Source: Antedon mediterranea (lineage: Eukaryota > Animalia > Echinodermata). Taken from it: a stretch of DNA of 64,000 nucleotides. Both the position numbers and the translations under genes were made by a program. Positions within the stretch are counted from its first letter, which is position 1; every line of letters starts with the position of its first letter. The stretch spans positions 26,108,437 through 26,172,436 of the forward strand of contig NC_092672.1 of assembly GCF_964355755.1 (NCBI RefSeq). The letters run 5' to 3'. Shown piece after piece: positions 8,514 through 56,500 of this stretch. The notes beneath the pieces were generated by a model that made no database searches, was not told where the DNA came from, and saw nothing but the letters and a program-made list of their open reading frames with translations.

Positions 8514-8599
8514 TTAATAGTTTAAAAGTGTTTGTTAGTTTTTTGTTTTGATATGAAGTTATTTTAATAATGTAACCTTTCATATATGTTTTACTTCAG

Positions 8600-20900: not shown

Positions 20901-20963
20901 CCTCGATACCTAGTACTGCGTGACGAACTTTACAACTGTGTCAGAAAACTGAACAAGAATTAA
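17924..20963 (+). CDS. Beta-lactamase domain-containing serine hydrolase (metazoan lact-2-like / family VIII esterase-like) with an N-terminal signal/anchor
   Basis: Exons 17924-18063, 18389-18689, 18772-18994, 19653-19846, 20265-20507 and 20781-20963 (TAA) join in frame. Hydrophobic N-terminus MDIRTSAIFIVLLAFLFYY. Motifs: VAHLWGG, catalytic SxxK (YSCTKG), VAKYWPEF, LLSHQAG, PGTHGYHA, EIPSALGIGTA, FGHPGNGG. Confidence 0.9.
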
Positions 20964-26498: not shown

Positions 26499-26702
26499 GT
26501 TTTATAGAATAAAATTAAAGTTGGTGATTCAAGTGAATACAGTTCTGTGTATACAGTAATACAAGGATGTAGCTCCTGGCGCAGTCAAATATTGGTATCA
26601 CACCGAAAGAACGGTAACTTGAGTGCGTGATGAGCAGGTTCATAAACAGGTCAGCAGAGTGCTGTCACTTCTCACTGTGCACGTAGAACACAGTATTTCG
26701 AA

Positions 26703-27128
26703 TGTAAAGAAGACCCGTGTCACACGTTAACGTTTCCAAACAACTTTAATTCAACAATGATCAGATGTTCGAAATCTGCAACAATAACAAATTACATAAA
26801 CACAAGCATCTAAAGGCTAAGCCTAAAACAAAGCTAGGCCTACTAGGCCTACACCACTGTAAAGCTACCAAAAGCAAACTAGACAAAAAACTCCTTAGAG
26901 CTACAGTATATAATAATATCAAAGTGCTATACAGTGAATGCACTACTCAAAGAACTTACACTATTACGTCTACATTAAGGTTGTATTTTACGGGAATTCT
27001 CTTAAGATGTGCGTATCAATCACCAATTCAAAGATTCACGTGGTCAACATGACCTCTGACCAACTCTTATTATCTAGAACTAGAGAGGGCGCTAAACCAT
27101 TAAACAAGATATAAAGTCAAACTTTACA
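26703..27128 (-). repeat. 5' LTR of BEL/Pao element
   Basis: TG...CA ends; direct repeat of 22223-22648. Confidence 0.95.
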
Positions 27129-32512: not shown

Positions 32513-35500
32513 ATGGTTGAAATAACGCCTAGTAGTAGGCATAAAGTAAGTATAGCTTTGTGATATGTGTATATTTTTTAGGACTTGTTGCATATTTAAC
32601 AACTCACTGGTAACTTCACATGTGATGCCTACAAATAATGGCGACGGATTTTCAATTGTTTACAATTATTATGGCATTTATGTTATAAAATCTAGTTGTA
32701 GATCTATATATAAAGTTATCCTACTACTCAAAGTTAGGTTTCTGGAATTTCTTGGTTGGCTGAACACTACTGATCATATAGATGGGGTTACTAAACACCG
32801 TGACCAAATACAACAAAATATCTTACGGAGACTCATACCAGGAGGTTTAGGTTAGGATGAAACCAATTTTTACAGCAAACATAAATAAAACTTTGTCGCC
32901 CATTAAAGCAAAAACTATCTCTGAGATAATCGTCATATAGTTTTTTAGGCCTATTATTAATGTAAAAATATAATATTCAATTTACATTAAATAAGGTAAT
33001 TATTATTTGTTTTTGTTTTAACTGTTTTTAACGTGTGTCACTTAAGGTGATATTTGTTATTTTGATGCACCGTTAGGTACGGTATTGTCTAACGTGTATT
33101 GCTATTAAGCTATCATTATACTGATTGAAATAATTGGATTGCCCTGCTTCACCCATATTATTTATTTTGGGGTTATGACGGCACCATGGGCCACACGACT
33201 GTATAACAAAAAGTTGCTGATTTACACATTTTTCTGCTTATAAAAGCCCGGATTTGTGTTCTTATTTTGTTAAAGTTAATTCTTATATAATTCTTATATA
33301 TTTATGATATAATAATAGTAAAATATTGCATTTTTGTTTCAGTCTTTTTTAGCTGTGTATTTTTTATTAGTAGGCCTATTACTGGATATTACAAAAACAG
33401 GTTAGTTTTTCATATATACATTTTATTTCTAAAAATTATGCACCTAAATTTATTCACAATATTACAGTATAATCATGTTTTCATTTTATTTTGGTTTATT
33501 CATACATTTTGGTCAGTTTTGTTTCTTTGCAGTATATTATTTGTTAAGAGCTACCTCACACAAGGTTTGGCTTTCTTGATGTCCCACTCTTTCATTTGAT
33601 AAAATTGGAGGCAGAATTGTGTATTTTTATTTCCTTCACATGAGAAGTAATTGGGAGTTGAACTTGTGGTACGCGCATGGTGCTTCCCTGATTAAAGGAA
33701 TAAATAGATATAATTAACTCTCTAATTCAAACAGTACTCATTTTAGTCAAGTCACTTTTGGTTTTGTTTTGTTTTGTTGTATGTTCTGGTAGTTGTAAAT
33801 GTAGGCCTCCCATCATCTAAAATCGTATGCAATTCTTAAATGTATTGTCCCACAAAACGGGAAAAATGAATGTTAATAAAAAAAAATTAATAGGTAATTT
33901 TGCAGTTTAAATAAACTTAATCACTTCCGTGAGTTTAAATTACAGTTTTTCAGGTAAACATTTTTGTTGGATCAAATTTTTGGTCAAAGTGAATAACTAT
34001 AATTTAAAAAAAATGTAAATAATTATTTTTTTTCATGATGACAATGCATCTTTAATGAAAGACCATCATCCGACATTTTAACCGCGTATGAAGAATATAC
34101 ACTGAATATGTTCTAAAATGTCAATTATTAATTCCCATTTAATCTAGTTGCATCGTTACATTTACATAAACATTTAAAAATAATCTGTAATCGAGACAAC
34201 AATCATTTGAATTTGATATTATGATGTGTTCTTCTTTTTCCAGAAGTACATGGTGAATTAATCACATCTGACCAGGAAGCCAATGAAGGTGATGCTGAAG
34301 TGAGGATACCTTGTGACTATTCACAACTTACTTCTACTACACCTGCTGGAATACAATGGGATGAACTAAATGAAGATGGGAACATCATTACTCCTGGCTT
34401 TGTTAATGATAAGAGGACTCAGAATGGTCGTTTTGAATTAATAAGCGAAACACTTGGGAAAGCTGACTTGGTGATGTCACTTCCAAACAGATCTGATTCT
34501 CAACGAATATTTCAGTGTGAGGTAAAAACATCAAGTGGAACCATTAAAAGATCAAATCCTTCTATTCTAACTGTATATTGTGAGTAACTTAACATATCAA
34601 TATCATACAACTGGAGAGTTAGAGAGAATAAACATTTGTTTTTTGTTTGTTTTTACTAATTAATAATGTATTCATTAATTAACTCAAGAATATAATGTTT
34701 GTTATAAGTAGAAAAACCTCAATATCAATTTAAATAATATTAAATTCAGTTTATACTGTATATAAAAAAAGAGATAGGAGTTAATTTTCAGTATTGTCAT
34801 AGTACCATTTTCTTTGTTTCACTTGATATTTATTTTAGGTATCTAAACTTTTAATCAATAGCACATAAATATAAAAGTTAATCTTCCTTCAAAAAGTTAA
34901 ATGCTTAATGGTTTACATTTTGGATGTTTTTAAACACTGTTGTTAAGGTCATTTTTTTCTGCAACAAAATACTGTCCATCTTTCTCCACTGTAAATTTGA
35001 CATTTTTTAGAAAATTGAAAAAAAAAACTATAAAAACCAAATAAACATATACAATTTCACTAATGAGCTACAGAGGTACAGTATAATGAATTAACACAAA
35101 CACACAAGTGTTTCACAGGAGTTTAAGTTTGCGAATGAAAAGTTGCTGTCCGAGTTTGAATGGACACAATTGTATATTGTATATTATGATATTTCATCAT
35201 TTTATTACTCTTGTTTCAGATTTGGATAAACCAGTTATTGTCTCGGCAAGTGCTATATATAAAGGTCAAACAGTGACCTTTACCTGTAGTACACCTGGTG
35301 GTAACCCTCCTCCTCGCATTACTCAATGGTATAAAAATGAACAGACAATCCCTAATAACCATTCTAGATACGATATTATTGCAAGTAACAATACAGTTCT
35401 TAAGATTAAATCAGCTACTGTAGAAGATGATGGGAGATATACATGTAAAGCAGAAAGTGGTCAGTTTAAAGGAGATGATGGAAAAACAAGCGTGGTCATA

Positions 35501-38500
35501 CAGTTGATAGTATATGGTATGTAAACTTGGAACATATTTATTAAAATAAAAACTGCTGTGCTGCATTTTTTTGTAGTTAATATTACGATTGAAGACATTT
35601 TGTTTAAAAAAAATATAGTTATTACCACATGTTGATTCTATATTTGGGGCCTACTAATGAGAATGTACATCTAGAAAAAAAATACCTTGTGTTCTTTGCG
35701 ATCTATCAGTTAAAATAACATTATCTGATACAGTAGACCTATTGTACATTGTTTAGATGTTGTTGTTACTTTTAAATCTGAGAATGGCTTTGCAACCTGT
35801 ACTGCAGTTGGTAATCCCAAGCCGCCATCAGTACAAGTAGTAATATTGCAAAATGGAGAAGAAGTTAAGAAGGGAGAAAATACCGCAGCTGTAGAAATTA
35901 ATGACGAAATATGCAAATCTAATCTTACATGTTATGCAGAGAATACTAAGCTTAGTAAAACAACGTTGGAGAACTGTAGTGCAGGTAATACATCAACATT
36001 AATAAAGGTGTTAGACGTAGTTAGATGGGTAGGGTGGAAGAGGTAAATGTGAGCATGAGATGTACTGTATGCTAATCACAACCTATATAAATAAAATTAT
36101 ATATAATTATAAATGGTCGCCTTTTTATGCCATTTATCTACCTGCTTAAAATGTTGTCCATGCTTGTTGGGATTTTATATACCCTTTCACACACATTTAC
36201 ATAGTGTTTTGTTTACCTTGAAAGTAATTTGAATTAGACCCTGATGCAGACTGAAGTATCTATAAAAGTGAAAATATTGTGCATACAAAACTAACTATAC
36301 ACAACTCCAAAGAATTGCTTTGAAGACAATCTATTATTAAGCACTTATTGGTAATTTGTATTATGGTAGTCAATAGTTTTTTTAACCGTTACTCTAAATG
36401 TCGGATAAACAGAATGTCGAAGAATTTTCTAAAAAATCGTCAACACTGTCACACATTCGTAATAAAAGTTGTTTTTAAATTGTTATTAAATAGGTCAGTC
36501 AGTCATTCTTTCATTTAAATGAAATATTCTTCCCATCAAACTCATCTTAAAACGCTCTTTTTTACTTTTAAATTGGTCAACATTTCATTTTTTCATTATT
36601 TTCTTAGCCATTTGATTAATTAAAGTTTTATTTGTGTTGTTTGCTACTGATAATTGATATGAAAAACATTAAAATACATTTGAAACTGACATACTAAACT
36701 ATAAATAGCATAACTAAAATCTGAGACAAATGTCACACTGTATCAAATAATTTGCCTATGAATACTGGACACATTATGCCATATGTGGAGTACAAACACA
36801 GAGGACGTGATAACAAATCTTTAATGTTCATAATAATTAATCAAACTCATGTTTTTGCTGGTTACCATTATACTAATGAATGAATCGTAATAAAAATTTA
36901 GGAGATTTGTTGAATGTTTGTCAGAAAACATTTTAAAATGCATCATATTAATATTCTGCAATTACAATGGCAATGGCGTCTTACCCTGTACTCTATATTT
37001 TAAATTTTATTGAATTGTGGTTTCTATTTTTTATTTTATTTATGTTGTCAATTCTGGTCAGTTCAAATATTGTTGTTAATAATTTCATATTAATTAAACT
37101 AACAATTCATTACACGATAATCTGTGCCTTATAACATCCTTGAAGATAATTATATCGAAAATGGACACCCTTTTAACAATTATTGAAATTGAAATATATA
37201 TTTGATCAGTGGCTGTGATGTACTAATACACCGGGTTAACCCCCTACTCGTCTCGTAAGATGTACTAGGTTCTTTAAAGTGCACACAAGCTAGATGTGTA
37301 ACACTGGACCGAGAAGACTGGTTCTACCACCAGAACCATGGAGTAAGTGAGCCTCGAACCCTTGCCGATGTTATGGCTACGTAATTACGGTTCCACTGTC
37401 TTAACCGCTCGGCCACTCACTCACTCACTATGTAACATAGAATAGGTGTTGTTCATTAGTACATGACCCTACAACATTTCTTGCAGTTAGAGAATAGTAG
37501 ATAAACATCACAAGGTGAAATATTTCCTTAATGACACTTTACATTTCTGTAGTATTGTTGCTTTCTGCTGGTTTCACTTTTTGATTTGATTAAATATTTT
37601 GCCACTAAAATGAAATTGATTTGTCATTAAATTGACTAAAACTACCACTATTATACTGTAGTAGTGGTGGTGCTTCTTGTTTTATATGTAAAATTGAATA
37701 AAGAAAAATAATCAGCAAATTGATTAATAATAATAATAATCATAAAAGCACTGCCAGTCGATTTTAATATGGCCTATACAAAGATTGTAAATTGTTTTTG
37801 TAGGTATTGTAGCAGGTTCAGTATTATTGTACATTGTTCTGATTGTGATTTGTGTTGGATTGCTGCTATGGTTACTGCTTCTTGTTTGTAAGTAAGATGT
37901 CTTTTCCCTTAATTATTAATTTTTAATTAATTGCAAGATTCGATATATCCTGCACTTTAAGATATTCATTGCTTCGTGAGCACTTGATAACAAATCAATT
38001 TGTTACAATTAAATTTTAATTATACAAATTGATGATTACAAAAGACTTTGTCATTTTTATTGATTAAGGGGTAGTAGATTTAAATGATTTATTTAAAAAT
38101 GATATTTTTAATTTAAATTTTAAGATTTTATGCATTACAAGAATATTGAGTGGAGCGATACAGATATTGATATAGCCACAGTTGAAGGAGGCAAGCCAGT
38201 TACGATGAGTTGGAAATACCGTCCAAGTATTGCAAGGTTCAAGACTTTTGAAATAAAGAAAGATAACAAGGTGCTTGGTTCAAATCAAAAGCAATTCAGT
38301 AGTTGCAAAAAGGTCTGTCAGTATGTCTGTTATTGCTGTGTTTACTTTTGCGGATTTTTTTGTGTTGACTACACTAATAAATCATGTAAGTTATATATTT
38401 TTCTAGTAGGTAATTATTTTCAAATTATAATTATGTTACATTAATTTTTAAATCGACTTTTTTTTGCTATGCACAACATTGTAAGAGTATAATAATGTAC

Positions 38501-41500
38501 TTTAATGGTAGTAATTGTTCAGGCTAAATGAGCAACATTCGTGAGTCAATCGAATACAAAGAATACATTTTGTTCATCATACAAATCAGTGAAAATATTA
38601 TTTATTCTTTTTAAATGGTGTCTAAGGAAACCTAGAATGTATGTACGGTATGTCAAGACATAAGATTACATTAATACATTTAAATTTAGTTTTGTATAGA
38701 TATTTGTAATATAGCGTAAGACAAGATAAAACAAGTATTGTATATGTCTATTTAAACTGATTTACATATTTATAATATCATATTTTAAATTATATACATT
38801 TTACTTATCATGGAGATAGTCGAATACAATGCAAATCCTTTTTCTTCACACCTTATCATGAGTAACTGCTGTATACATTAATTTAAACTCATTCACTTCT
38901 GAAAATGTAAAAAATATTCTGATTTCTTTCATAGTTGAGGATAAAACAATGCATAGAAACAAGTAAGTTTAGTTTTAAAATTTCAATAATTTATATAGGT
39001 ATATTATTCATGAAATTATTTATGTATGGCTATGATTATAAAATCATAAATATGTTTTGTTGATTTTTTCTTCTGTTTTCATAGAAATTTCAATTACTAC
39101 ATTATTGCAGCCAACAGTCCCATATCTAAACACATCTATATTATTTCCACAACATTTCCAACACACAAATTTACCTTAGTATAATATAACCAAAAGCAAA
39201 ATATGCCTATTAAAATACTTGATATTGATGTATTGTATTTTAATATCTTGTTTTGTTAACAAATATCAAGCAGAAGTGAAGAGTGTGAGATGATGGCCAA
39301 AGAAAGAGAAGGTCCAGAAGGTGCAGTAAGTAAATAATATATATTTTCTAGTGGAAAACGGAATCTACAATGTTTTGTTAAACTGAGTTTATGTGGTAAC
39401 CTGATCGTAATCAACAGGATAATCAATTTCAACCTAAATTAGCTAGAATTTGTAAATGTTGATTTTCTAAAACGATTAATTTTAGTAAAAGAAGCCAATA
39501 AATGTTGTAATAGTAGACTACAATTACATTGTTGATGTTATAGCTATTCATTGATTTGACACTGTTTTTTCAAAGAAAATTCCTGATGATAATGAAGATA
39601 GTAAACTTCTAGCAGGACATCAAGAAGCATCTGGTGAAAGTACAGACGATAAAGGTAAATGTTAATATTGTTTATTTAGTAGGCCTACTTCTATTTATAA
39701 TTTAAACAATTCAAACATACTTAGCCGTTGCCTGTCCAATATCGACGGGCACCATCTTATAATGAGTTTGATGTTTGGGAATAAAAAAGACAGTACAGTA
39801 ATAATGTTATGCAGTATATACAAATCTATAATTGGATGTACAGTACCAAGCTGTACATTACAGCATTTAGATACAGTTAATATGGATACTGATATACCTA
39901 TTTATTTGTTCATATTTTTTTTGGACAATGAGTAACATGTTGTCAGCACCCTTATTTACATGGTTGCTTTCTGCATGACCATTAAAGAAAGAATAAAAGG
40001 AATACTAATAAATACCTCTATCTATTGAGGGCGATATCTTTTATGATTATAATGTACACTCATTTAGTAATTTCTAAATTTGTACTTAACTTAACTTGTC
40101 CAGAGGTTCCAAAGTTTATGTCAGATTTAGTGGAGAAATAAAATGTAGTGGCGCGTGTGCTTCGTATGTTTTACATGCTGGGTACCAGGTTCGAGTCTTG
40201 TTGATACTTCATGGTCATGGTTCAATTTGTACTGATAATTTGCTGTGTAACAAGATCATATACAAACAATACAATTAAACAATGTTATTACAGAGATCTT
40301 GATCATTCTCAATATGTTCACTATAACATTTAAAAATGGTTATTTTATAAAGTAATTGTTGCCATATCTATACATCAGTTTTGATGAATTTAATGCAATT
40401 AGTATTTTCTTACCGTATTTATTGTTCAGGAAGTGTTTTAGGAGGGAGGTGGATGAGATTTTATTCAAGGTTTATTCGGGGATGGCGTTTTTTTTTGTGG
40501 GTGTAATGGTAATCAAATAAATACCCCCAGTATGAAAAAATACAACACCCACAATTAAAATAGTAATACAATACAGTAAAAATTGTATCAAATCCCTGGT
40601 AAATTGTAGGTGTGTCTCAGAAATATGTTTTTGTCTTAATTGTTTCCCATTCAATTAGTGAATACATTTTAATTGCTTTTTTTAATAAAGGAAGAGATAT
40701 CAGTCATACAGTAAGCTTTCGTTTTTCTTTAAAATCTGCAATTTTACCAATATGTGCATACTAATAATATTTTTATTTATTTATTTTTTTTATATTTTAC
40801 ATTGTATAAATACCGTAGAAATTGCTTTAATAGTTACTCTTTTTTCAAATATTAATAAAAAAAAATCAAATGACATATTTGTCTAAACTTGCTATACATT
40901 TCAGTAGAATTGTATTATATAATTACATTTATATTACGTTATAATTCATTACCTTATCTTCATATGTTTATCTTTACATTACAAGAGGCCACACAAAATA
41001 ACGTCTAATTAAAATACTGTAATACTATTGATATGGAAACATTTTCACAGAATGAAGTAGTTTATCCATCTGGTGTTTCGATGCCATTTGAAAAACCTGT
41101 CATTTATGCTCAAGTGAAACGTGGCAGAAAATCTACTGGTGATATTTATTATTATTTATTTACAAAATGAATTTAAAAAAAAGTGTATTGCTTTATTTTG
41201 CAAATTACTGAGTATTTTAATAATATAACTATTGGCACTATTAGATTTATATTTTTAAATAATCATTTTGATAAGAGGTGTTAGTGTTGTTATCCGAGAC
41301 ATCTGTATATCAAGCAGAAAGTTCCGGTTTCAAATGTCGATCAAGGCGGCGGATTTTTCTCATAGTCACAGATTTCCTCATCTGTATCGTTTCGAATTAA
41401 TTAATTCAATTTTAGTATATCACTGGGTAGTTTAGAATTTCTTCTGTGCCTATTAATTTATATAATTGTTTTCCATCATTGTTGCTATTGTAGATCTAAA

Positions 41501-44500
41501 CTTTGTTAATGCGTTTTGTGTAGATTATAGGCCTATCCTTCTAAATTAGGCTACTTATTATGATTGGGTGCAAAACCAAATATGCATCAAATAGTCTTTC
41601 TCATCATCATGTTTTTGTCCACATTACATTTGTACTGCATTTTGAAAATAATGAAAATAATTTAACAGTGAATCTATTTTTACTAATTTCTTTTTTATAT
41701 TCATTTATAATTGTTTGCGTATAGCTATACTTAATGTGTTGCATAGGTTAGTTGTAATTGATAATTTTTTAATTTTACAAACTATATTTTAACGTTTTCG
41801 AAAGATTTTTGTTTTTGTCAGACATACCTTGCACAAGGTTAACATGTATTTGTTGTTATACCAATCCTACATTCCTATGCGTTCATTGGTTTTAATTTTA
41901 TTTTTATTATTATTTTATTTATGCCACTAGGAAAATCAGATAGTAAACACAAAGAAGAAACATGCAAGGTATTATTCATTTTTTTAGAATATGCTTATTT
42001 GAAGAGAGATAGGAGGCTGTTCTTATTGAGAAAATTAAATTCTATTTCTTAATCAAACACGACATCTATCAAAGCAATTGTGTTCATTTACTTATTGCAT
42101 ATACTAATTGTGAAACTGAAAGTCGATAAAGTTGTTCCAGTTCATGGATACTTTCTTTGTTTATAATTATGATAAAATGTTTTTGTTATTTATTGGGAAT
42201 ATGTCTTAATTAGTTTATGATAAATTATAGAAAGAAATTCAATACGCTGATCTTGATTTACAAGTCAGTAGGCCTACCTCGGGAAGGATAATAGATAATG
42301 AGGAGCAAACACCATATATAGAAATGTCACACGGAAGACTTGTCAGGAAAGGTATTATGGTTGTATTGAAAAATTAAAGACACTGACTTTGTGTTTATTT
42401 CAAATTCATAAGAAAAGGAGAATAATAATGCTTTGATAAACTGATATTTTTATTGTTTGGATTTCATATCAGAAACACTTGTTTTCTTCTTTTGAATGAA
42501 TTGTTAGTAGGCATAACATAGTGCTGCTTTTCAAATTGAAAAATATTCAACAAAATATAATTATATATATAGCTACAGTAAATTTAAACGTAAGAGAAAA
42601 ACTTAATAATAGAGATATGAAGTTTACAAGTAAAAGTAAACTTAAATATAAAAACAACTTTATTTGTACAGTAAATTTTGGCTAAACACTTGAGTAGATA
42701 GAATTTTTTTTTAATTTCATTTCTTACAAAGTCCGTATCATTGTTGAATTTTTGGAAGATTATTATTTTCTCAAAATTTAGATTTTTATTTGTACAGTGA
42801 TACAACCTTATGACACAATAAATTATGTTTTTATAGAAGTCTTTCAACATCCCAAATAACTTAAAAAATTAACTGCAATTAGTGACAACTTTAACAAGTT
42901 TAAATTTTAGTTCATTTTGTAAAATGAACAGAATACAAAGAAAAAGCCTGACAAATTCGAATACATGAATAACCTTTCTCATCTTTATGCTTTTTGAACA
43001 AATGTCTTTTTTTATATAATTATTGCATTGTTTTAAATGGTCAGCTCATGATCTTGTGAATAACTACTTCTACACACATTTGTTAGCACTACTAGATATG
43101 GCACAGTTTAATCAACCTAACATGTTTTATTTGTTATTTTAAAAAATGGAGTGGATTGATTTGATTGTTTTTATATTTCATGCTCTGATGTATGTATTAA
43201 TTTTGTGGCATACACACTAAAAAAAAAAGGTGCAAATCTCTACCTAAAAAGGTGCAAACCGATGCAACAATAGCAGCTCCCTTTAAGGTGCACAACTGCA
43301 CCTTTGACGGAAGGTGCAATTTTGAACCCTGATAAAGGGTGCTATAATGCTCCTTTGGAGTTCACATTTGCACCATATAAGGTGTAATTTTCTACCCTAA
43401 AAGGTGCAAACTAAATGCAACAATAGCAGCTCCCCAAAGGAGCAAAATTCAACCTCTAAATAAAGGTGCAACTTTACACCCTAATAAAAGGTTCAATAAT
43501 GCTCCCCTAAGATTCAAATTTCTGTTAAAAAGGTGCACAAATAAAAATCACTAAAATACAAAAAATATTGATTAAGCTTTGTATAATTTTATTCAACTTT
43601 AAAACATTACATTATTCAATTCAACTGCTGAATTAATGGATGGCAATTACCAGTCTCTGCACCTTAAATAGAGTGTGGCCATCTCTTCTCAAACCAAAAA
43701 TAGGCCTATTGTTAAAATTATCTAATGATGACATCTTTGGCAGTATTCTCTTCTTATCCCCATATATCTGAAACAGTGTTCTTGATGTCTGGTTCACCTT
43801 TTCCGAACATTTTCACCTGATTATGTACTTTCCTAAAAAGCATGAAATAGGAAGGGAAACTATTATATTAATATTATCATTAATATGACAACATCATACA
43901 ATACATTATTGACATTGTTCTGATTTTTAAAGTCAAATTACCTTGACCACATGCTTCACATACTTTAAAGTATGTTCCTCTCCCTTTCCTCAGCTCGTAG
44001 TATAGTAGGCGCTATACTAGAGTATTACAGTACATGTGGTCACATTTCTTTCTCCTTTTCTGAACATTTTTATTGCTGCTGATTAGAGCAGAGGTGCTCT
44101 TTCATGTTTTAAACTTATTTTATCCCTCCATGACATCATGTAGATTGTAGGCTGTAACTATAATTAAAAATAATGATAATGTGTATAAGAATTTAATATA
44201 GGCCTAATAATACCCAGCTACTGTAACAGCCCACGAAATTCAGAAAAAAGAAGGTCGGCAAAAAATTGCCGACCTTAAATTCGCCAAGGTCGGCAGTCTC
44301 GGCAGTTCTAAAAATAGAAAATTCACCCCAAGGCCTAAACCTCTTGCTAACCTAAAAGGCCTAGCTAGGCCGGAGCCTAGCCTCCCTAGCTATGTTATGC
44401 AAAAAGAACTAGCAAAATTAACTTTAAAAAAATATAAAAACCTAACACTAAAATCTACAAGATAAATTCTATTTGATAATTAATTGCTGAATATCATGGT

Positions 44501-47500
44501 TCTGGAGCTAGCCGTACACAGAGCATAGTTGCTTGCTTGGCATAACAGGGTATTCCCCTACACAGGTCTGTGGCGCGCAGCGCTGTGCCCAGCCAGCTTG
44601 GTTGATAGGAAAGCATGCAGCTCACACACAAAATGATGTAATGGTTGAGTGAATTCAGGGATCATCTTAATTCCATGGTTTGTTAACTAAACACAACATG
44701 GTGGTGAATATGCCTGTTAAAATTTCAATGATACGATCCCTTAAAGTACCATGTTGTTGCTAGGAGGCTTGAAAGGAGGGATCTAGCCTAGTTTCTAGGT
44801 CGGCAATCTCTTGCTGTCCTCTGACAATTTAAGGTCGGCAATAAGGTCGGCAATTGCCGATTGCCGACGTGAAATTCGTGGGCTGCTGTAATAACTAATA
44901 TTAATAACTAGGCCCCTGGCCTGCCTAGCTAGGCCTATTATTGATTATAGGCCTAGCCGGCTAGCTAGGCCTAGGACTGCTTTTAATTAAGTTTAAGGTC
45001 TAGGCCTACCTTTAGTAACCTAGCCTAGCTAGCCTATATTATGCCTAACCTACTAGCTAGACCCAGGTAAGTAGGCTAGGCCTGGTCTAGGACTAGCCCC
45101 CGCCCGAAAGGCTACTGTAGGCTAAGTAGGCCTCTAGACTGCCTACTTTAGGCTTAACCTAGCCTAGGCTAGGCCTAATAGAGGCCGCCTACTAGGTAGA
45201 TAGGCTAGGTAGGAGGCCTCTAGCTAGCCATATTTATTTATTTAGCTATCATTTTTAAGTTTTAGGCCTAGCCTAGGCTTATAGGCCTATACAATAATTA
45301 ATCTAATAAAAACAACCAAACTACATGCCTATAAAGCTTCGTTACTTACTTTTAACAGCTATCCTACACTGGAGAGGTGTGGGAGCTAGGCCTAGTTTAA
45401 TTTTATAGCCTGATTTTTTGGGCGCAAACTCCTCAATTCAAACTGCATGTTTAACAACCGCACGCGCTTAAAATTATTGTTCAATTCCTGTTTCAAATAA
45501 ATTTAGAACAGATGCCTACATTATGATATTAGATATTCTAATAATATTGTTAAATATGAAAGAAAAGTTTACTTATTCTAGACTTAAGCAAACCAGAGTA
45601 AATGACCTCTGAAATTCAATATTTTAACAATTGTTTACAGACATCTTGCGTGCGCATACGGTACGAAAATTGTACAAAAATTGTACAAAAAGGTGCTATT
45701 ATGCACCTTTTAACTGATGTTAAACCTTATAGGGTGCCCAGTTGAATTTATCATGTTAAAGGTATTAAACTTTAATTTTCAGTTACAAGCCAGCGACTTT
45801 TTAATGTTCCGTAAAAAAAAAGATTTGTTCGAATTCCGATAGCTGTCCCCACAAACCTATCTATATTATTATTAATCTTTCTTATTTTTGTTTTAACTTA
45901 CCACAATAATGTCATTCTAAAAAAATTGTCCTTATCATCACCTTTTAAGCTTTTAGAAGCCCTAAGTTAAACATATCAAGAAGCGTTCATTAATCTAATA
46001 GGTCTTATTTGTCACACAGTCACCATGGCCTACTTGGGCCTTTGCGGTGCAGTTCTGCACCTTTGTATACTTGTCTGCATTTTTCGATATAAAAGGTGCA
46101 AAAATAAACCTTTTATGAACTCTGCACCATTTTATGAGAAAAAGGCGCAAATTAGCACCCTTTTATAGGTTTGCACCTTTTATTGCACCTTTAGTTTTAA
46201 GTGTGTACTTTCAAATTTAATTTTCAAATAATATTGTTTTCAGTTTTTAGAACGCATAGTTAAACCATATTTGTTATTTTTAAAGTTAAGAGTACAATAA
46301 TTGTCAGAATTAATACTTATTATATTATTTTTTTAATACTTATTATTATATATTAAAACTATTTTAAATGCATTTTAAAGCAAACTTACAAATTGCAATT
46401 GCAAATTCAATTTCTAACATAAATGCTGACCATGCACTGAATATATTTAGTCCTGCCTTGGGTTTTAATTTATTGGATTTTTTATGCCGCTATAGGAACA
46501 ACACACATTGAACTTGAAGAAGAAAAGTCCAAGGTATTTCTAGTTTTAAAAAAAGGTGCTCTGTTATTATGTTAACAATTTACAAATGCACTCCTCCTAC
46601 TAGGTATGAAGACTTAAACACAGCCTACGTGCTATTAACAAAGCATACATAATATCAGCACCTTTAAAAACGATTTTGTTTATTTGATCTCTATTGTGTC
46701 TTACTAATTATTAACCTTGTATTACAAAATGCAAGAATGGTAAAGAAACGATTTTGGTGAAGAATAGATAATTAATTCCTTTAGAAACCGAAAGCTGATG
46801 AAGTTAATACAGTACATCCTTAACTGCTTTCCTTGTTTATATAATTTCTGGTGCAACTTTTGTGTATATTTTTGTGTATATGTTAACTTTATGATAAATT
46901 ATAGAAAGAGATTCAATACGCTGATCTTGATTTACAAGTCAGTACCTCAGGAAGAGTAATAGATAATGAGGAACAAACACCATATATGGAAATGTCCCAT
47001 GGAAAGCTTGTCAGGAAAGGTATATAATATAGTAGTATTATACAATCCACAATTACAATTTTTTTTTTACTATACCGACATTTCGATTGATTCAGATGGT
47101 TTTTTTTTCAGACATTGTTACTTATTACAGCATTATTTATTTTTGAGTAATTATCTTTTAATTTGTATACAATATATAAATATTACACTAAATATTATAA
47201 TAAAAATATTATAATCCTGTTTCTGATGCGAAAAAAATAACCGATTAATAACTGTGTGACTAATTACCCCTTATCTCGTGGCAGCAGAAACAGGAACAAT
47301 TTTCAATTATTTACCGGTTATGGCAGCGTAAAAATAATTGTTTAAAACATCCACCATTTAACCGGCTATCATTGTGCAACTTTTAGCTGCAACACACACG
47401 GTTATTTGATTTACAGCTGTAGTATCTTGTACGTTTGACCGCCTGATCACATTGCATTTTGGGTAATGTTAATGTGTTTTTCAATGACCAACCACTGGTT

Positions 47501-50500
47501 TAAACGGTTATTTAGGAGTACAGAAAAGACCCTTTTTTATCAACATTCATAAATGACCTATAAAATTAAAACAATAAAATGTACTCCTAAATAGTCTAAC
47601 AGCTCATATACATATACACGAAGGTACTCTATTTCTACTATATATCATATAAATAATATTTTAATGGCTTGGGAGGAGAGTGGATGTGTCGTGTTTTTGA
47701 GTTAGAAACCAATTTTGTAATTAAGTCCTATTTTTTTAATGGAATTTTTTAATTTAGTGCAGTGAAAACAATAAAGGCCAAATTACACAGACGAGCGGTA
47801 ACGGTAAGCGGAAAACGCAAAAGTAGAATCTATGTAATTTCCTTAGGCCGGTGCACACCAAACGCGAAGCCGCGAATTTCGCGTTAAAAAGTGACGCACG
47901 CGGCAGGCAACGGACGCTTCCAGTGTGAACATACACGCGAACAGTGTACGATAGTCAAATTTCAACTTCAACGCGTTGAAAACGACAGCAGCGAAGGCTT
48001 CGCATGCGAATTTTCAAAAGTTGAACCGTGGTCAACTTTTTGAGGCGTCGCGAGCGCGGTTCGCGTTCGTCAACCAATCAGAAGTCAGGAATATCACTCA
48101 TCGACGACACCGACGGCAAAAAAATTGTGGCTGACGTGACGAGCGAGGTCTTTATGGAAATACTTTGTAATTACCCTTCTTGTCTTTACGATAAGGGAAG
48201 TAAGTCATACACAGACAGAAACAAGGATTAATGCATGAAGACAAAATTTCAGACAAACATAACATCTGTGTAGAAGAATGCCAGAAAAACTAGGCCTAAA
48301 ACGCGTCAGAGATCAATTTGTAAAGTGAGTTGGCAAGCCTTCTATTTCTAGCCTACCTATAGGCCTAGGTTACAGGCCATACTAGCGCCTAGCTAGGCCT
48401 ACCTAGGCTAGGGCCTAGGCTACATATACCCTAGTAGGCTAGGCCATGCCAAGTAGTACTTATAGGCCTACATAATACTTACTAATCCCTACTAGTCTAC
48501 TATGTGCTAGGCCAGGCCTAGCCTAGGCCTAGGTTAAGCCTACTACTAAATATGAGTACAGTAGGCCTACTACTAGGCCTAGCTACTAGGCTAGGCTAGG
48601 CCTAGCCTACTTATTATTATTCATTAATATTTATAGGCCTAATAGTTAGTTTATTTAGTGTTGTAAGGCTAGGATAGGCCTAGTAGTAGTAATAACTAAT
48701 ATTAATACATAAATACTGTTGTTTTTGTTTTGTTTTTTTTTAGGTCAATTAGATGAACATTGATAAATGGGATCCTTCAGGCTATTACCAGCGTTACAAA
48801 CTCCACCAATGACCAAGCTAGTAGTTTAAGTGACCAGTATATTATTGCCATGGAATTAAGAGCAATTGCTCCTCAAAAACGTGGACTGGCAATTATGAGG
48901 CTGATACAGGTTTGTATAGACTTTTTTCAAATGGGTATGTCAGTTGGTGACATACATTGGCCAGAAAAAAATTATTTAAGCAATATGCCTTACTATAGCA
49001 ATTTTTTAATACTTGTTTCATTTTTTTTTTAAATAGAAAATGGAAGAGATTAAGGAGGAGTTAGACTGTAACTAGTATTTATTAAGTGGTTATAGAAGGA
49101 AAGCTGAACTGAATGTCTTTTTTTAGCAATAGAGAACACATGGAAATATATGTATATGTTTTGTTATACTCCAATACTAAAAAAAATAGTCAAATTGGCT
49201 GCCAGCTAATGGAATTTTTTTCATTTTATAAGTGAAAACATAAGTTTTTTTGTTTTTTTTTCTATGTAAGTGATTAACTTTGTTAAAACTACAAAATGGC
49301 CTATTAAAATTTGATTTTAGTCATCTTCATTTTTCATGATTCTATGAGACAATACATCTTTAAGTTTAGTGTCATATTTTGGACAAGATATATTGTCTTC
49401 CTGAAAATATAATTTAAAACATTTTCGTTGTGTGTAATACAGTATAACACTTTAGGGTTAGTTATTCACTTTTAACAATAATAATATTTCTTCAATTTTC
49501 GTTTTTTTTTTGGGATGATACATTTTAAATTTATTATTTTGATATTATTTTGCAAAAGTATTCAGGAGTAGTAAAAAAGAAAATCTGGTTGATAAATGAT
49601 ACCTTTAAAAACAATGATTCACTATTTCAATAAGTGTATTTATGTGAAAAAAAAGTCATAAGATACAGTGTAGATATGAGTTTGGGATATTTATTACATT
49701 TAATCAAATGAGAATAAAACTGTATGTTTTTTCATGAATAATATAATATTTAATAATAATTAGAAAATAAATGTGAAAACTTTACATTAATATATAGGCC
49801 TATAGTTTATATTTTGAAAGTGACAAACCCATGAAGATTCCCAGTTCGTGTTTATATGAAATGTTTTATATGGTTATAATAACCTCTGTTGAAAGATATT
49901 TGTAACACCACTAATAAATAGTCAGCAGATCACATGTACGTGTAATCAACATGCAATAAATGCTTTAATTCTTGTAACTGTATTGATATTGGATACATCT
50001 TCTTCTGTCCTTGTGATATATACATACAATCATGCACATTTCAGGCTTTGGAAAAGGATAAAATTTTCCCACCAAAACCAAACACTGTGATTGGTGTAAC
50101 CAGGGAAGAGTTAAATTACATTTTAATTTAACTCTTCTCTGGTTAAACTTACATAGGAAATACTTCAGAGTCATCCTCTCTGATTATTTTAAATGTAGCA
50201 TTGTATTATTGGCCAACCCACTATCTAGGCCTAGCAATCGCGACGAATCAGCACATCGTGACGCGTTTAGTGGGAACCAACAAGAAAAACTAATAGACGC
50301 ATGACAATTCAACTTTCAAAGCGATCCGTCGAATGACGCGTGACGCATGACGCTTTGCGGCTTCGCGTTCGGTGTGCACCGGCCTTTATGACCATTTACA
50401 CAGAACGCGAAGCGGACGGGAGGTAAGCGGAAATACGTGCAGGATAGAAACAAATTCTGTGAAAATACCGCACGGTAATTATGGATTCTGGTCAATCAAC

Positions 50501-53500
50501 GACATGATGTGGCGTCAGCTATTAACAACTGTTTTGAGTGAGTCCGTCAATAAATACGAGTGCCGTAGTAGGCATAGCCTAGTTCTGGAACTTCTTATTA
50601 TTCAATACAAACAACTTGCAACTCGTCTGTGTAAATTGGCATCAACGCTTGACACACATCATTGATTTTAAATTTGTTAGCAATTATTTCAAAAAATTAT
50701 TTGTATTTTCCTTATCAATGTTTTAAGAATGTACTGTTTATGTGTATCATGTTTTGTTTCTTTTTGTTTGTTCTAGCAAAAGACTCAAACAGGTAATGTT
50801 TTGTTGATTATACATTAACTGATTTTTTTAACTGCCAGTAAATATTTTGGTAGCTTACTCACAGGTTTTTTTTACGGTTTTAAGCAACACACATTTATTT
50901 CATGCTGCTATACTGTTCACTATTCACTAATTCCTTCTGTATCACCTATGGGATAATGCTGTTTCAAAAGGGTTCAATTTATTTACATTCTTTTTAGTTA
51001 TTATCATAATGTTATTAGAATTAAGGTTAATATATTATTTATGTGGTAGTTAGTTGTAATCCATATCATAACATTTATATTCAATTCTGTGTTAAATCAC
51101 TTTAATCCAGTTACCTTGTTTTTAGTTTAATGATATATTTGATTTTATTTTGGAAACATCATAACATACATACAATATATGATATAAACACTTAATATAT
51201 TGAAATTTATTTCCATATTTTATAAGATCAACATCAACAAAGTATTTTTTCCGTTGCTTTTCTTTTGCTGTCTTCCTTTGGAACGGTTTATCGATCTCTA
51301 TCCATCAGGCTCATTAAATTTAAAGGTAGCTTTAAAAACTCGCTTTTTTAACTCTTAGTTTTCTTTATTTTTTTAATCTCTTAAATCACATTGCATCTCA
51401 TCATGCGCTATAATCCACATTATTATAATTTTATTAAATCAAGTAGCTAGACTTTTTGCTAGAAGAATGTATACAATTATTAACCTTGTTTTAATAGTTT
51501 AATAAATATATACTACCCTTGTATATTTTTCTTTTCATTTAAATCCTTCAAATGCAGTTCTCTTGTATTTGTGTAGTCCATAGTTCATAAGTGTGCCTGC
51601 TTGAATTGTTATTAATTGTTCAAAATTGTTTGCTTTTACTTTGGAGTGTGTTTCTCTGTCAGGAAAATCTCTCAGGGTATTTCATGATTTCATTTTATTA
51701 TGTAAATCTGCATTAGATATTTGTTTATATTTTTGCATGGTTAATAACAGTTCATAAATTTGTCGAAATGGTTTTATACATAATAAGTAGTAATATAAGT
51801 ACTCCAACCATAATGCATTCGCAACCGTACATTTTCATCCGATAACCATCCAGAAATGGAATGAGCCGCATGTGCGCACACGTCTTAATAAACACACCTG
51901 TATGACATTCTAATGTGTGGATGGTGTGTCTCGTATTTTCCTGAAAAATTTGTATTATTACATTTTTTTTTTTTTTTTTAGATCTGAAAATTCATATTCA
52001 AGTAAGTAACATTAATATTATTTCAATTTTACTTGTAAGTTATAATTGATCAAGTTGTAAAGCTTATTAATAATATAGTATGTTAGAATCAGTCAAATAA
52101 ATATAAATAGGCCTATATGAAATGATGTAATTTGTTGCTTAATTAATTAATAAATAATTAATTAAATTAAAAGCATATAAAAAAAGATGATTGTGACATG
52201 TCTGTATATGTATATTCGTTTGAAGTGTTTGCAAATGGTAGAGGGAGAATAAGCCTAAGAGTGCAAAATCCTGTAGGATCTGATTCAGGGACGTACAACT
52301 GCAACATAGAGGGCAGTAGCCAGCAACATCCAGTCCGCAACAGTTTATCTGTTTATTGTGAGTTTTTATAATTTATTATTCTTAATTGTTCACTAAGGTA
52401 TCTATGTTATTGTTTCTCTTCTTATTTGTTTATTTATTTATTGTGTTATGAAATTCAGGATTTACATAATATTTTTAAACAAAGGGATAAAGATGGTAAA
52501 CCCCGAGTACTTAGCAAGACATGGTATCGATAATTTTGAAATGAAGTGCAGATATGGACCAGAAGATATGCAGTTAACAGGTTACAAGTGGAAGAAGATT
52601 AAAGAAGATGGCACAACAGAGATCGAGGATTGTTCTAAAGATCCTAATTTTGAAGTAAAATGTTACCAAAATAGCATTCTCTCGTTAAAGAAAATAAGCA
52701 ATTTTGTAATTGGTGATACTGGGAAGTATCATTGTGAAATTCATCCAATTGCTGAAGAAAAAAGTCTGAAAGCTTCTACAAAGCTGACAGTAGTAGCTAA
52801 AGGTAAGTTTTTTTTAAAATAATTTATGAACACTGTACAGTAGCGGATTTTGTAAATAAGGCGTGGTGATATTGTGTGTAGTACATATTATGTATTGTAA
52901 AACAATGTGCTAATGTTTTATTTTTTTGCATTAAACTGTTCAATATTTAGAGAAAACTGTTCAATATTTAGAGAAAACTCAGGCTGCCCTTCCCCGTAAA
53001 CCATGGGTCTGCCTATGCTGTACTATTCTTATTTCAAACATTTATTTTAGATACTGAATTAAAAATAGTTTTAGTAATATTTTGTAATTCTTAAGGTATA
53101 CGTTAGTGGGCTAAAAATTATGATACAGAAATTGATCTGTTGATTTGTATGCCTAGCTAAACAAATCTAGTACTTGGTTGCAGTCCTACCAAACACCATG
53201 CACATCCTGCATCACCACACATCACATAATGATATGAATAATATACTGTGTGGTGTTAAATAGGGTTGCGAACTGTTTAGTATGGAAACTAATTCCAATA
53301 CAATACAGGATCTCTAAATGATTGACTATCGTAAATTTTGGCCTTACTTATTTTACATTTGTATTTTAAAATGCGCTATATGTGAACATTTGTGTAATTT
53401 AACACGTATGAATTTGGATTTCTTAAAAGGCAAGAATAACTTAAACGAAAGGCCAGCCAGTGTGTTTACCCATAGGTCATTTGGCCTTAATATCGAATGT

Positions 53501-56500
53501 TCAATTTAAAATTGTCTCGGTCTAGTCTTATTTGCGAAATTTAGATTTCGTGCGTGTTTTAATATTGTAGAAACGAATCCTGGTTTTATTAAAAGATTCA
53601 ATAGAAGTGAAATCAGTACTTACAATAAACATAAGATATTTATATTTTTCGTTAATTCTTTTCAGAATGATTCCATTGATATTTACAGATAAACACATAT
53701 TTAATGAACATTGTATTTGTGTGGTTTTTTTTAGATCCAGTATTGACAATAGAGAAAAGTATAATGTGTTTAGCAGAAAACGCCATTATTCCTTTTCGTA
53801 TGTTATCAATTCCACAAAATATCAATGAATTTATTTTTGAAAAACTTGAATCCGGGAAATGGAAGAAAGTTGGAAGTTCAAAATGTTCTGGCAGATTGTG
53901 TGTACATTATGATACAGTAACACTGGAAGGATATCTTACAATTCCAACAGTTGAACATTCAGATGCTGGCGAATACCGCTTAAAATGTGTGACAGATGAA
54001 AATGATATTGTTTACTTGGCAAACTGCAATTTAGATCTGGCCTGTAAGTATATAATGGCAAGTTAAATAGCAACCTACATGAGCAAATTGACTGCATAAA
54101 AGAATTAAGAAATAAAATAAGCAACACATTAACAAAAAATTGAAAAACCTATCCAGTTACATCTTGTGACAAGTTTTTGTCTAATTGAACTATGGAAGTA
54201 CTTATTTTATACCTCCATAATTGTTGAATACACTTACATACTTACTGAATACAACCATATTACTGCATTCTTAATTGAGGTTAATTATTTTTAGATAAAT
54301 TGAATGAATAGAATATTATCTTAACGTTGTTAAGTGTATTACTCTATAATTTTACTCCTTCTGTACAATGACAAACATTTAAGTAAGGATAAATACCCTA
54401 TAAACACCCTATATGACACCTATCAACATAAATGACTGTGAATTAGATACAGTTAACTATGCAAAAATACTCGGTGTTTTCATCCAGGATGATTTAAAAT
54501 TTGATGTCCAGGTTGACCATATCCTTAGTAATGGAGGAAGACGTCTACACATGCTTAGCCTTTTAAAACAGTTTGGGATTCCTTTTTAAGACCTTGCCCA
54601 AGTGTACACCACATATGTTAGACCAATTTTCGAGTATGCAATACCAGTATGGCACTCTAGTCTTACTGTTGCGCAGACAAATGCCATAGAGTCCATGCAA
54701 AAACGTGCATGTAAGATAATTTTGGGTAAAAATTACCAAGACTACAACACTTCCCTTAACATTTTGAATATTAAACGACTAGATGAACGCCGCGAAAATA
54801 CATGTCGTAAATTTGCTACAGATTGTATTACATCTAATAAATTCAAGGATTCCTGAGCTTTCTGTTAAACTTAGGAAAAGAAAAGAATTTGTTGAGCCCC
54901 TATGTAAAACAAACCGATACTATAATAGCCCTAAGCTTTATCTTACACGCCTCCTTAATGAGAGATAGATTTTAACTCAGTAAAACTAAAGACATTTTTG
55001 AAGACGTATAAATAAATTAAACATAATATGTGAATATGTACAAATAAATATATTACTACTGTAAATACCTTAATAACTCCATAATTTTCACATTTTCTAA
55101 TTTTATCAAATTTCATAATCTTGTAAATAAATAATCAATTTCCCTTATTTAATTAAATTTTTAAATTTGTAGATAAATTTTAGCTAAATTTGTATTTTTA
55201 TGTATTTTTCTTGTGCAATATGTTTGATTCCACTTTTATTTGTTCTTTGATTTCTATGTGAACTTTATATACTGTTTTATGCCTGTTTTAAATGTTTTTA
55301 TATTTGTAAGTATCATGTAATTCAGCCATTGGCTGCGATTTTGATATGCAATAAAATGAAATGAAATGAAATGAAATAAATAGTTTATCCACTTCCTCTT
55401 TGCTGCCAAAAAACACCTATTTATACTAACTGTTTTAATAAATTCACCTAAATTTTATAGTAGCCTAAAAAACTGACACATAACTGACCGCCTACTAAGC
55501 GCATTGCATATTGGGTAATGTTAAAGTTTCTTTCGTTTATTTCCACTCACTGATTGAAACACTTTTTATGAGCACAAATTTAGCAAACATATTCTCATCT
55601 ATTTTCAATGGTCACCATTCTTTGGTAATTTTATGATGAGCCCCTGATTCCATGTTTTTAGAAATTCTTTATCCCATAAATGTTCAAGACAATCGATTTT
55701 TTTCTTCCATAGCCTTTGTTCTTTCTTATTGTAGTCAAGTACCTCTTTTGCAATTTCCTTGTATGCAGTTATAATTTTACTACATTTCTTTCCACCACGT
55801 CGTCCTCATCAACACCTTCTAACGCTTCAAATCTGTTATTTAGTTTTATTGAAATTGTCTTCTCCTATCCGAATGTTCAAGCTTAATTGTGTCAAACGTA
55901 ATCCTGCTATTTCTGTGCTGATGCTTACTTTTTAGTTTCAGTTGAACTTGTGTGCGATTTAGATGGTCACTTACGATGTTAGCACCTCTCATAACACGAA
56001 TGATGTCCTATATGGATGATCTGTGTTGCTTACTAAAGTAGTATATGATCTATTTGGTTGTGTGTCACTCCTTCTCCAACATACGCATTATCCTATTCTA
56101 ATATACTTTTTTTAAACATTTTCTGTGCTACTCAGGTGCGACTCAGCAGTCTAATAAAAAAGAAGTTTGCCTTGGTGAAATACGAAAGCATCCTCCAAAA
56201 GAATTTGGTCTTGGTAAAATTGCAACATTTCAGCAAGGACTAACAAGTTTTGAAGTTGCATCAGCAAAGACCATGCGAGATGGCCACAATCGTTTTGTGT
56301 TGTATACAGTAGCTGTTAAACATTCAATTGGAAAAGACACATCTCAGGCCCTGATTGACAGAAGATATACTGAATTTTACCTTCTGAATAAAGTATTAAA
56401 ACGCAAGTACCCTCATATTATGAAACACGTTGTCTTCCCAAATAAAGTCATCACTGGCAATTTCCGTCACCACTTCATCATTGAGCGAATTCGTGCATTT

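Follow-up and report, generated by a model that had tools for sequence, protein, structure and literature searches.

Immunoglobulin receptor gene in a crinoid genomic window

The window analyzed here is a stretch of 64,000 nucleotides from the crinoid Antedon mediterranea (assembly GCF_964355755.1, contig NC_092672.1, positions 26,108,437 to 26,172,436 of the forward strand; coordinates below are window positions), animal DNA with a base composition of 27-42% GC. As predicted from its exons, the gene described here is a receptor gene of a multi-copy crinoid family of single-pass immunoglobulin (Ig) receptors. The encoded domains follow in the order signal peptide, three Ig domains, transmembrane (TM) helix, a first Ig-like piece (piece 1), a Cys-rich stretch, a linker, a second Ig-like piece (piece 2), three further Ig domains that are intact, and a BNR propeller of sialidase-like type running beyond the window. 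The linker carries tyrosine-based inhibitory motifs of the immunoreceptor type (ITIMs), and the two pieces flanking it may be the halves of a single Ig domain. If every exon joins, the predicted product has 643 + 679, or about 1,320, amino acids (aa), and five downstream exons joined by coordinates are identical (366/366) to the A. mediterranea RefSeq protein P0022. The features of the locus are as follows.

32513-32545 (+): probably the first coding exon (11 aa from an ATG, with the phase 0 donor GTAAGT), proposed from the sequence and an RHK ending as in P0007 ahead of its signal peptide
33343-33400 (+): signal-peptide exon, from the sequence and relatives
34244-34579 (+): extracellular Ig 1, V-like; weak Pfam V-set match, 57-67% to relatives, folded in the P0004 model
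35220-35516 (+): extracellular Ig 2; Pfam Ig_3, 4.5e-17
35757-35984 (+): extracellular Ig 3, short; Pfam Ig_2, 6e-4, and relatives
37804-37887 (+): TM exon without a charged residue; hydropathy 3.19, spliced to 38125 in an X1 contig
38125-38385 (+): post-TM exon, with piece 1 (about 38139-38303, A'-B-C-like, Trp at the B-strand Cys position) and the Cys-rich hydrophobic stretch (38313-38372); from relatives, donor, profiles and the X1 contig
38935-39654 (+): three linker exons common to ITIM-less relatives (38935-38962, 39271 or 39274-39325, 39576-39654); exon chain and relatives
40691-47019 (+): ITIM cassette of six exons (40691-40710, 41051-41138, 41931-41968, 42231-42351, 46496-46533, 46905-47019); exon chain and a homologous block in P0004/P0010, absent from isoform P0005
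50777-52001 (+): three micro-exons (50777-50792; 51227-51241, optional; 51982-52001, encoding SYS and the A of a Met codon); exon chain, P0022 and relatives
52226-52357 (+): piece 2, strands D/E-F-G with the DSGTYNC motif, where P0022 starts; Pfam, family profile, P0022 identity
52485-52802 (+): intact post-TM Ig A, the family domain most like the two pieces taken together; Pfam, family profile
53735-54043 (+): intact post-TM Ig without B-strand Cys; Pfam, relatives, P0022 identity
56136-56629 (+): truncated SNX21-like PX-domain copy in an intron, with a phase-1 acceptor and a stop, a possible alternative last exon; sequence, absent from RefSeq P0022
58141-58437 (+): intact post-TM Ig without B-strand Cys; Pfam, P0022 identity
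60787-60829 (+): first exon of the sialidase-like (BNR) domain, continuing outside the window; P0022 identity, BNR_2 2.2e-11

The post-TM exon and its Cys-rich stretch

A first-pass annotation of this DNA had read the post-TM exon as encoding only A-B-C-C'-like strands of an Ig domain, with an end at 38316. The Ig-like piece is present, but the exon ends at 38385, and the Cys-rich hydrophobic stretch had been overlooked. The reading continues past 38316 through this stretch in 7/7 relatives, 38385 has a GTAAGT donor, and between about 38115 and 38385 the contig depth summed over paralogous copies stands far over that of the flank. A paralog-like contig of run X1 departs at exactly 38385. Another spliced X1 contig (3 differences in 95 bases) has a 22-nt loose end identical to 37866-37887, the end of the TM exon, and the junction of the TM exon with 38125 is therefore spliced, be it in this gene, in an allele or in a close paralog.

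Conservation over this exon is high, with 22 of 86 columns invariant among eight sequences that include one from Anneissia japonica; the stretch of piece 1 most invariant between the two crinoids is YRPSIA. At 0.87, conservation is highest in the Cys-rich stretch, which holds 7-8 Cys in Antedon and is followed by 4-6 Lys/Arg. Pfam gave no match for region 38301-38384. Summed contig depth at 38115-38385 and 52485-52802 is tens of times that of the flank and comes with many substitutions; depth of this kind is not a copy number, but the family must therefore have many more genomic copies than the six annotated genes found.

Small exons and the ITIM cassette

Between the post-TM exon and piece 2, twelve exons of 15-121 nt, in phase 1 on entry and exit, had been described with a total of 630 nt. 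All have AG/GT ends and join in frame without a stop; their sum in our chain is 633 nt, because a tandem acceptor at 39271/39274 accounts for 3 nt. The tyrosine motifs reported for this block were recovered in full: VIYAQV, IQYADL twice, TPYIEM and TPYMEM. With the ITIM consensus (I/L/V/S)xYxx(I/L/V), three matches were counted, a number attained in 0.09% of 20,000 shuffles (p 0.0009), and the two matches left once a duplicated unit is removed were attained in 0.6% (p 0.006). The duplication concerns the main ITIM exon (42112-42367 versus 46784-47039, 78%). Since the cassette from 40691 to 47019 has phase 1 at either end, it could be skipped in frame.

The 15-nt exon 51227-51241 appears optional: it finds no support in relatives, and the junction formed without it is closer to their sequence. 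The last micro-exon (51982-52001) supplies SYS, conserved in relatives directly ahead of NGRG and, judging from the alignment, probably the start of the D strand. Two further micro-exon candidates were rejected by hand, one at 41822, which breaks the frame, and one at 51663, which does so unless substituted for 51982. No junction among the twelve exons or into 52226 was seen among the 15 of 187 contig joints listed.

The cassette introns also hold inverted-repeat elements resembling DNA transposons (about 43211-46207, 44216-44896 and 47845-50385), one of them nested. Segments 44221-44885 and about 47808-50386 are missing from other contigs, and run X1 has a GT..AG joint at 48907-49035 inside a multi-copy element.

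Second piece and downstream domains

Exon 52226-52357 was confirmed as encoding the C-terminal part of an Ig domain only: it is AG/GT-bounded, in phase 1-1, and aligns to positions 70-96 of the Pfam V-set and 54-90 of the I-set profile. Its frame closes upstream at a stop at 52170, so that the exon cannot supply an N-terminal half of its own, an extension that the first-pass annotation had singled out for checking. Piece 2 has the F-strand motif D-x-G-x-Y-x-C and the E-F-G strands of V/I-set domains, and a Met stands at the junction before it in this gene and in 4/6 relatives.

The BNR_2 profile scores above its cut-off in P0022 and four relatives (P0001, P0002, P0006 and P0009), and Asp-box-like motifs as well as R-x-P are kept in 5/5 of these propellers. 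A Glu precedes SDL, where NEU enzymes would have the catalytic Tyr. From these residues the sialidase-like propeller may be inactive; it is likely cytosolic.

A gene ending in a PX domain was considered and dropped: RefSeq P0022 skips the PX piece, which is a truncated SNX21-like copy. This intronic piece (56136-56629, plus strand) is 87% identical to residues 95-245 of an A. mediterranea SNX21-like protein, lies on the same strand as the receptor, and has an open frame with a stop. Used as an alternative last exon, it could by its sequence give an Ig-PX receptor.

Relatives and history of the insert

A search with the post-TM exon returned seven related proteins among nine candidates, all from A. 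mediterranea and 68-84% identical. These RefSeq models represent six genes, each annotated as a single protein, and the split layout occurs in 7/7. In 6/6 related genes the two pieces are spaced by 127-198 aa, compared with 241 aa here. An ITIM block exists in only one of the six, the gene of P0004 and P0010, where it is homologous exon by exon to the block in the window; P0007 has one loose ITIM match. Isoform P0005 of the P0004 gene, a form known from annotation, skips the ITIM block at boundaries that match 39654 and 50777, in phase 1, and the same skip is in frame here. The insert lacks the block in 5/6 related genes; the ITIMs are therefore an optional cassette in an older insert and not the cause of the split. 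On comparison of these sequences, the insert is old and family-wide and its ITIM cassette optional.

An exhaustive profile search gave 118 matches. Piece 1 is found in only 12 of 134 proteins compared, namely 11 Antedon isoforms and a fragment from Anneissia japonica that comprises piece 1 and the Cys motif. A. japonica holds both pieces, in two separate records (P0029 and P0060), the second of which begins just ahead of piece 2. Skipping all twelve exons had been predicted to regenerate a compact, ITIM-less Ig domain. The direct junction 38385 to 52226 is in frame, but it would keep the Cys-rich stretch and lose SYS, and no compact form occurs among the 134 proteins; the skip annotated in a relative removes the ITIM block only (P0005 versus P0004).

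Continuity of the transcript

RefSeq annotates the 3' part of the locus as a gene of its own, so that a single continuous transcript is presumptive here. Its 679-aa protein P0022, the same under three accessions, starts at the Met across 52001/52226, although an in-frame transcript via exon 46905 would offer upstream Met codons. No database protein with this locus's post-TM exon was found among the nine candidates of the exon search, and the ITIM-exon protein search gave nothing among two candidates, which is weak evidence. These observations count against a single receptor transcript. The part from 52226 could instead be expressed alone, perhaps from a start site in the introns that hold transposons, and the 5' part would then be silent, truncated or spliced on its own. 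The cassette introns do contain two inverted-repeat elements (about 43211-46207 and 47845-50385), and P0019 and P0060 likewise begin at or just ahead of piece 2. Against this stand the 5' exons, which are all intact and in frame over about 643 aa to the Met and are collinear with single-protein relatives, and the spliced TM-38125 junction. A frame error at an exon of 15-20 nt would, moreover, make an annotation pipeline pick the 679-aa frame over the shorter one of 643 aa. We regard separate expression as somewhat unlikely; it would be compatible with any of the structural interpretations discussed below, and the family layout would still hold for the paralogs.

Do the two pieces form one Ig domain?

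Several profile comparisons are consistent with a common origin of the two pieces in one domain. Against a profile of intact Ig domains of the family, piece 1 aligns to positions of about 6-45 and piece 2 to positions 67-105, with no overlap in 7/7 sequences. A second profile was made of 109 outside Ig domains, for whose selection piece 2 alone was used. Against it the profile of piece 1 has a score of 18.4, a value reached by 0/100 column shuffles, and 6/8 piece-1 sequences taken singly align to the N-terminal strands (equalled by 0-6 of 300 shuffles each). Placed side by side, the two pieces are collinear with the next domain (52485-52802) over 68 columns, at a probability of 76%. Conservation of the pieces (0.77 and 0.69) falls within that of the intact domains (0.67-0.80), compared with 0.49 for the linker. 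The repeat-filled domain P0009_d3 was excluded from the controls of the outside-profile and pairwise tests. From these comparisons piece 1 is likely of Ig ancestry; a derivation from a TVEGG-type intact domain found no support (hhalign probability 0.1).

A considerable body of results weighs against this interpretation. On the family profile, piece 1 reaches just 4-9 bits, and the window sequence is equalled by 4/200 shuffles. Two of the eight piece-1 sequences (P0007 and P0029) fail to map to the outside-Ig profile, and for the window sequence 6/300 shuffles do as well. Piece 1 alone is equalled by 6/100 shuffles on the next-domain profile, its pairwise tests are mostly non-significant, and it has no Pfam match. 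The B-strand Cys is replaced by Trp or Phe and the C-strand Trp is missing; the intact post-TM Ig domains at 53735 and 58141 likewise have no B-strand Cys. A paralogue in which this Ig is contiguous, proposed earlier as a check, was sought and not found among the 134 proteins compared.

Structure prediction, also proposed earlier as a check, did not assemble the split domain. In the AlphaFold model of the relative P0004, computed from a 17-row alignment, the predicted local distance difference test (pLDDT) score is about 20-25 for piece 1, which is unstructured, about 50-64 for piece 2, and 70-90 for intact Ig domains; the isolated region of P0001 gave an uninformative mean pLDDT of 29 throughout. 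Both alignments were shallow (8 and 17 close rows) and therefore hold little signal for contacts across a gap of 130-200 aa. Modeled as a complex of two chains, the pieces scored 0.12 compared with a mark of 0.34, which in a run without alignments or folded controls gives no verdict. Fold and sequence searches of the PDB returned generic Ig matches or none, and ESM Atlas matches, under 0.9 and some of them named Dscam-like or C2-set, are leads only.

The same cytosolic topology would also accommodate an arrangement without refolding, in which piece 1 is an Ig-derived juxtamembrane or binding remnant, piece 2 rests on the next Ig or is partly unfolded, and the ITIMs lie in an ordinary long linker. 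The unstructured piece 1 of the AlphaFold model, its lack of Ig hallmarks and its low profile scores all fit such a remnant, and YRPSIA, the most invariant part of piece 1 across two crinoids, could be a linear motif. It fits less well that piece 2 retains an E-F-G core whose alternating hydrophobic residues require partner strands, that the profile ranges of the two pieces complement each other, and that their conservation equals that of intact domains; the contrary AlphaFold result also comes from the shallow alignments noted above. We consider this arrangement unlikely, and put the chance that pieces 1 and 2 co-fold at about even.

The central proposal of the first-pass annotation, that an ITIM tail had grown inside a loop of a membrane-proximal cytosolic Ig domain, thus stands in part. 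An ITIM-bearing, disorder-like segment does lie between two Ig-like pieces behind the TM helix, in a layout common to relatives. The Cys-rich helix had been missed, the ITIMs are a later, optional cassette, and AlphaFold leaves piece 1 unfolded, so that co-folding is something we infer.

Membrane topology

In seven related, and thus non-independent, sequences (isoforms P0005 of P0004 and P0003 of P0009 left aside), the ectodomain has 36 N-glycosylation sequons where 18.4 are expected, a ratio of 1.96. Behind the TM helix, observed and expected counts in the same related sequences are 26 and 24.8 for the Ig domains, 13 and 12.7 for piece 1 with the linker, and 15 and 13.4 for the propeller (ratios of 1.02-1.12). 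This lack of enrichment, together with the ITIMs, favors the cytosol for the C-terminal part. By these sequence measures, everything behind the TM helix is likely cytosolic, and the Cys-rich helix, by analogy with CYSTM proteins, is likely palmitoylated on the inner leaflet, where it may tie the loop to the membrane.

The Cys-rich stretch could alternatively be a second TM helix, which would leave piece 1 as a short cytosolic loop and place outside the cell the linker and piece 2 as well as the Ig array and propeller; co-folding of the pieces would then be impossible, and the tyrosine motifs would have no signaling role. Its hydropathy of 1.5-2.0 over 19 residues in 12/12 sequences that hold it would permit this, but is below the 3.1-3.6 of the TM helix, and its insertion energy is unfavorable, +0.7 to +4.9 compared with -6 to -8 for the first TM helix, so that on sequence grounds it is a marginal TM segment at best; it is helical at low confidence in the P0004 model. 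Many downstream Ig domains keep their Cys pair, a point against a cytosolic location, and sialidase folds frequently function outside the cytosol. The missing sequon enrichment past the first TM helix, unlike that of the ectodomain, the ITIM consensus conserved between this gene and P0004, and the basic cluster behind the Cys-rich stretch, which favors the cytosol, all speak for the inside, and we judge a second TM helix improbable. Elsewhere, helices rich in Cys that had been annotated as TM turned out to be palmitoyl anchors (PMC10840359): CYSTM/CYSPD proteins have a hydrophobic helix with five or more Cys that predictors call TM. CYSTM stands at the C-terminus of proteins of 60-150 aa, unlike the Cys-rich stretch here, which is internal and has no Pfam match.

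Proposed mechanism

As a whole, the explanation that we find best, and would call evenly poised, is that the first post-membrane Ig consists of two pieces that likely co-fold in the cytosol around an inserted Cys-rich helix, likely palmitoylated, and a loop predicted to be disordered, with a probably skippable cassette of three ITIM-consensus motifs. Everything behind the TM helix would be cytosolic, with the Cys-rich helix and its basic cluster lying on the inner leaflet and not crossing the membrane. Pieces 1 and 2 would make one non-disulfide sandwich, probably from a duplicate of the next Ig, and such a sandwich would therefore draw the C-terminal Ig array back to the membrane and turn the linker into a loop pinned at both ends; the ITIM loop would thus be held by the TM helix, the lipidated helix and the re-formed Ig. 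Ligand binding by the extracellular Ig domains might lead to phosphorylation of the ITIMs by Src-family kinases and to recruitment of SH2-domain phosphatases, as is known of ITIM receptors. Splicing or choice of paralog would remove the cassette, and ITIM-less paralogs and isoforms would be the non-inhibitory members of a paired family. The Ig array would position the propeller, which is possibly catalytically dead.

It is improbable that the split is a snap-together joint, in which piece 1 on membrane-bound receptors is completed in cis or trans and soluble modules, expressed separately and starting at piece 2, dock different Ig-plus-propeller or PX effectors under control of ITIM phosphorylation, even though P0022, P0019 and P0060 begin at piece 2 (P0060 just ahead of it).

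Comparison with known systems

The sequence features of ITIM receptors are present, with a signal peptide, extracellular Ig domains enriched in sequons (1.96), an uncharged TM helix and an ITIM consensus above chance, and by analogy the protein is most likely a paired-type receptor. In known inhibitory receptors of the Ig superfamily, the ITIMs lie in a free C-terminal tail; here, in contrast, an Ig piece stands on either side of them, and three Ig domains and a propeller come after. SIRP-alpha, LILRB, Siglec, NILT and the Hydractinia Alr family share the signal peptide, the extracellular Ig, the uncharged TM helix, ITIM-consensus motifs on small exons, and a multigene family that has ITIM-plus and ITIM-less members.

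The nearest parallel for a split domain is lipin/Pah1, where a cytosolic Ig-like domain is split into two parts around a variable linker of 250-500 aa regulated by modification, with a membrane-binding helix nearby (PMC7066176). Lipin is a soluble enzyme with naturally fused relatives and a crystal structure, unlike the crinoid family, which so far has neither. Pfam profile scans showed no lipin family, and no sequence relation was seen. Split PH domains of PLC-gamma and myosin X (PMC2573054, PMC3216653) likewise have a signaling module inserted in a loop of a folded domain; the fold is a different one, and in myosin X the insert is another folded PH domain and not an ITIM-bearing disordered loop. 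Split-Ig wording is absent among the split-domain literature matches listed.

Among 93 matches from outside the family, 19 carry Ig motifs both ahead of and behind a hydrophobic stretch. In the teleost proteins P0021, P0068 and P0102, V-type Ig domains occur on both sides of the TM helix, often without the B-strand Cys, and the similarity is generic at the level of the Ig fold; neither a split domain nor a Cys-rich helix nor an ITIM block was seen in the 13 both-sided sequences inspected or in P0021. The teleost V-type both-sided proteins comprise P0021, P0068, P0070, P0088, P0102, P0119 and others, one of them fused to an Hsp70-like domain, and no paper on them was found among the literature matches listed. 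The sea-cucumber AjNLR-new is a membrane protein with Ig domains behind the TM helix (PMC13133943).

The crinoid family itself was not found among the top-ranked matches of a full-text literature search that had most subscription journals and supplements outside its reach. Crinoids are, to our knowledge, the least studied echinoderm class for immune receptors. Should the explanation hold, this would be an expanded crinoid paired family whose ITIMs sit on a loop in a folded domain, together with what is likely a second lipid anchor, an Ig array in the cytosol and a propeller of sialidase-like type. A receptor would then stand beside lipin, PLC-gamma and myosin X among the few split domains whose linkers are regulated. 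The family would also provide a natural series, with members that are ITIM-less, have one unit, have the unit duplicated or splice it out, in which the gain of inhibitory motifs through inserted exons could be followed. Without co-folding, there would still be a family of crinoid receptors, so far unannotated and unusual in the order of its domains, mainly for comparative immunologists.

Other features of the window

A 1277-aa open reading frame (ORF) on the minus strand (22668-26501) reads like gag-pol of a Bel/Pao long terminal repeat retrotransposon, the reverse transcriptase part apparently missing. The plus strand has, by eye, exons of a gene resembling beta-lactamase-domain proteins (18348-20963) and, at 8557-15805, the exons of a gene, one of them acidic and of low complexity, with a Cys-rich piece that looks like a zinc finger and resembles the C-terminus of Rubicon/PLEKHM. 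Fragments at 27117-29802 (minus strand), 54563-54856 and 61954-62937 look like endonuclease and reverse transcriptase of non-LTR retrotransposons. From about 500 to 7000, the window begins with a tandem repeat of a unit of about 1.5 kb with near-identical ORFs.

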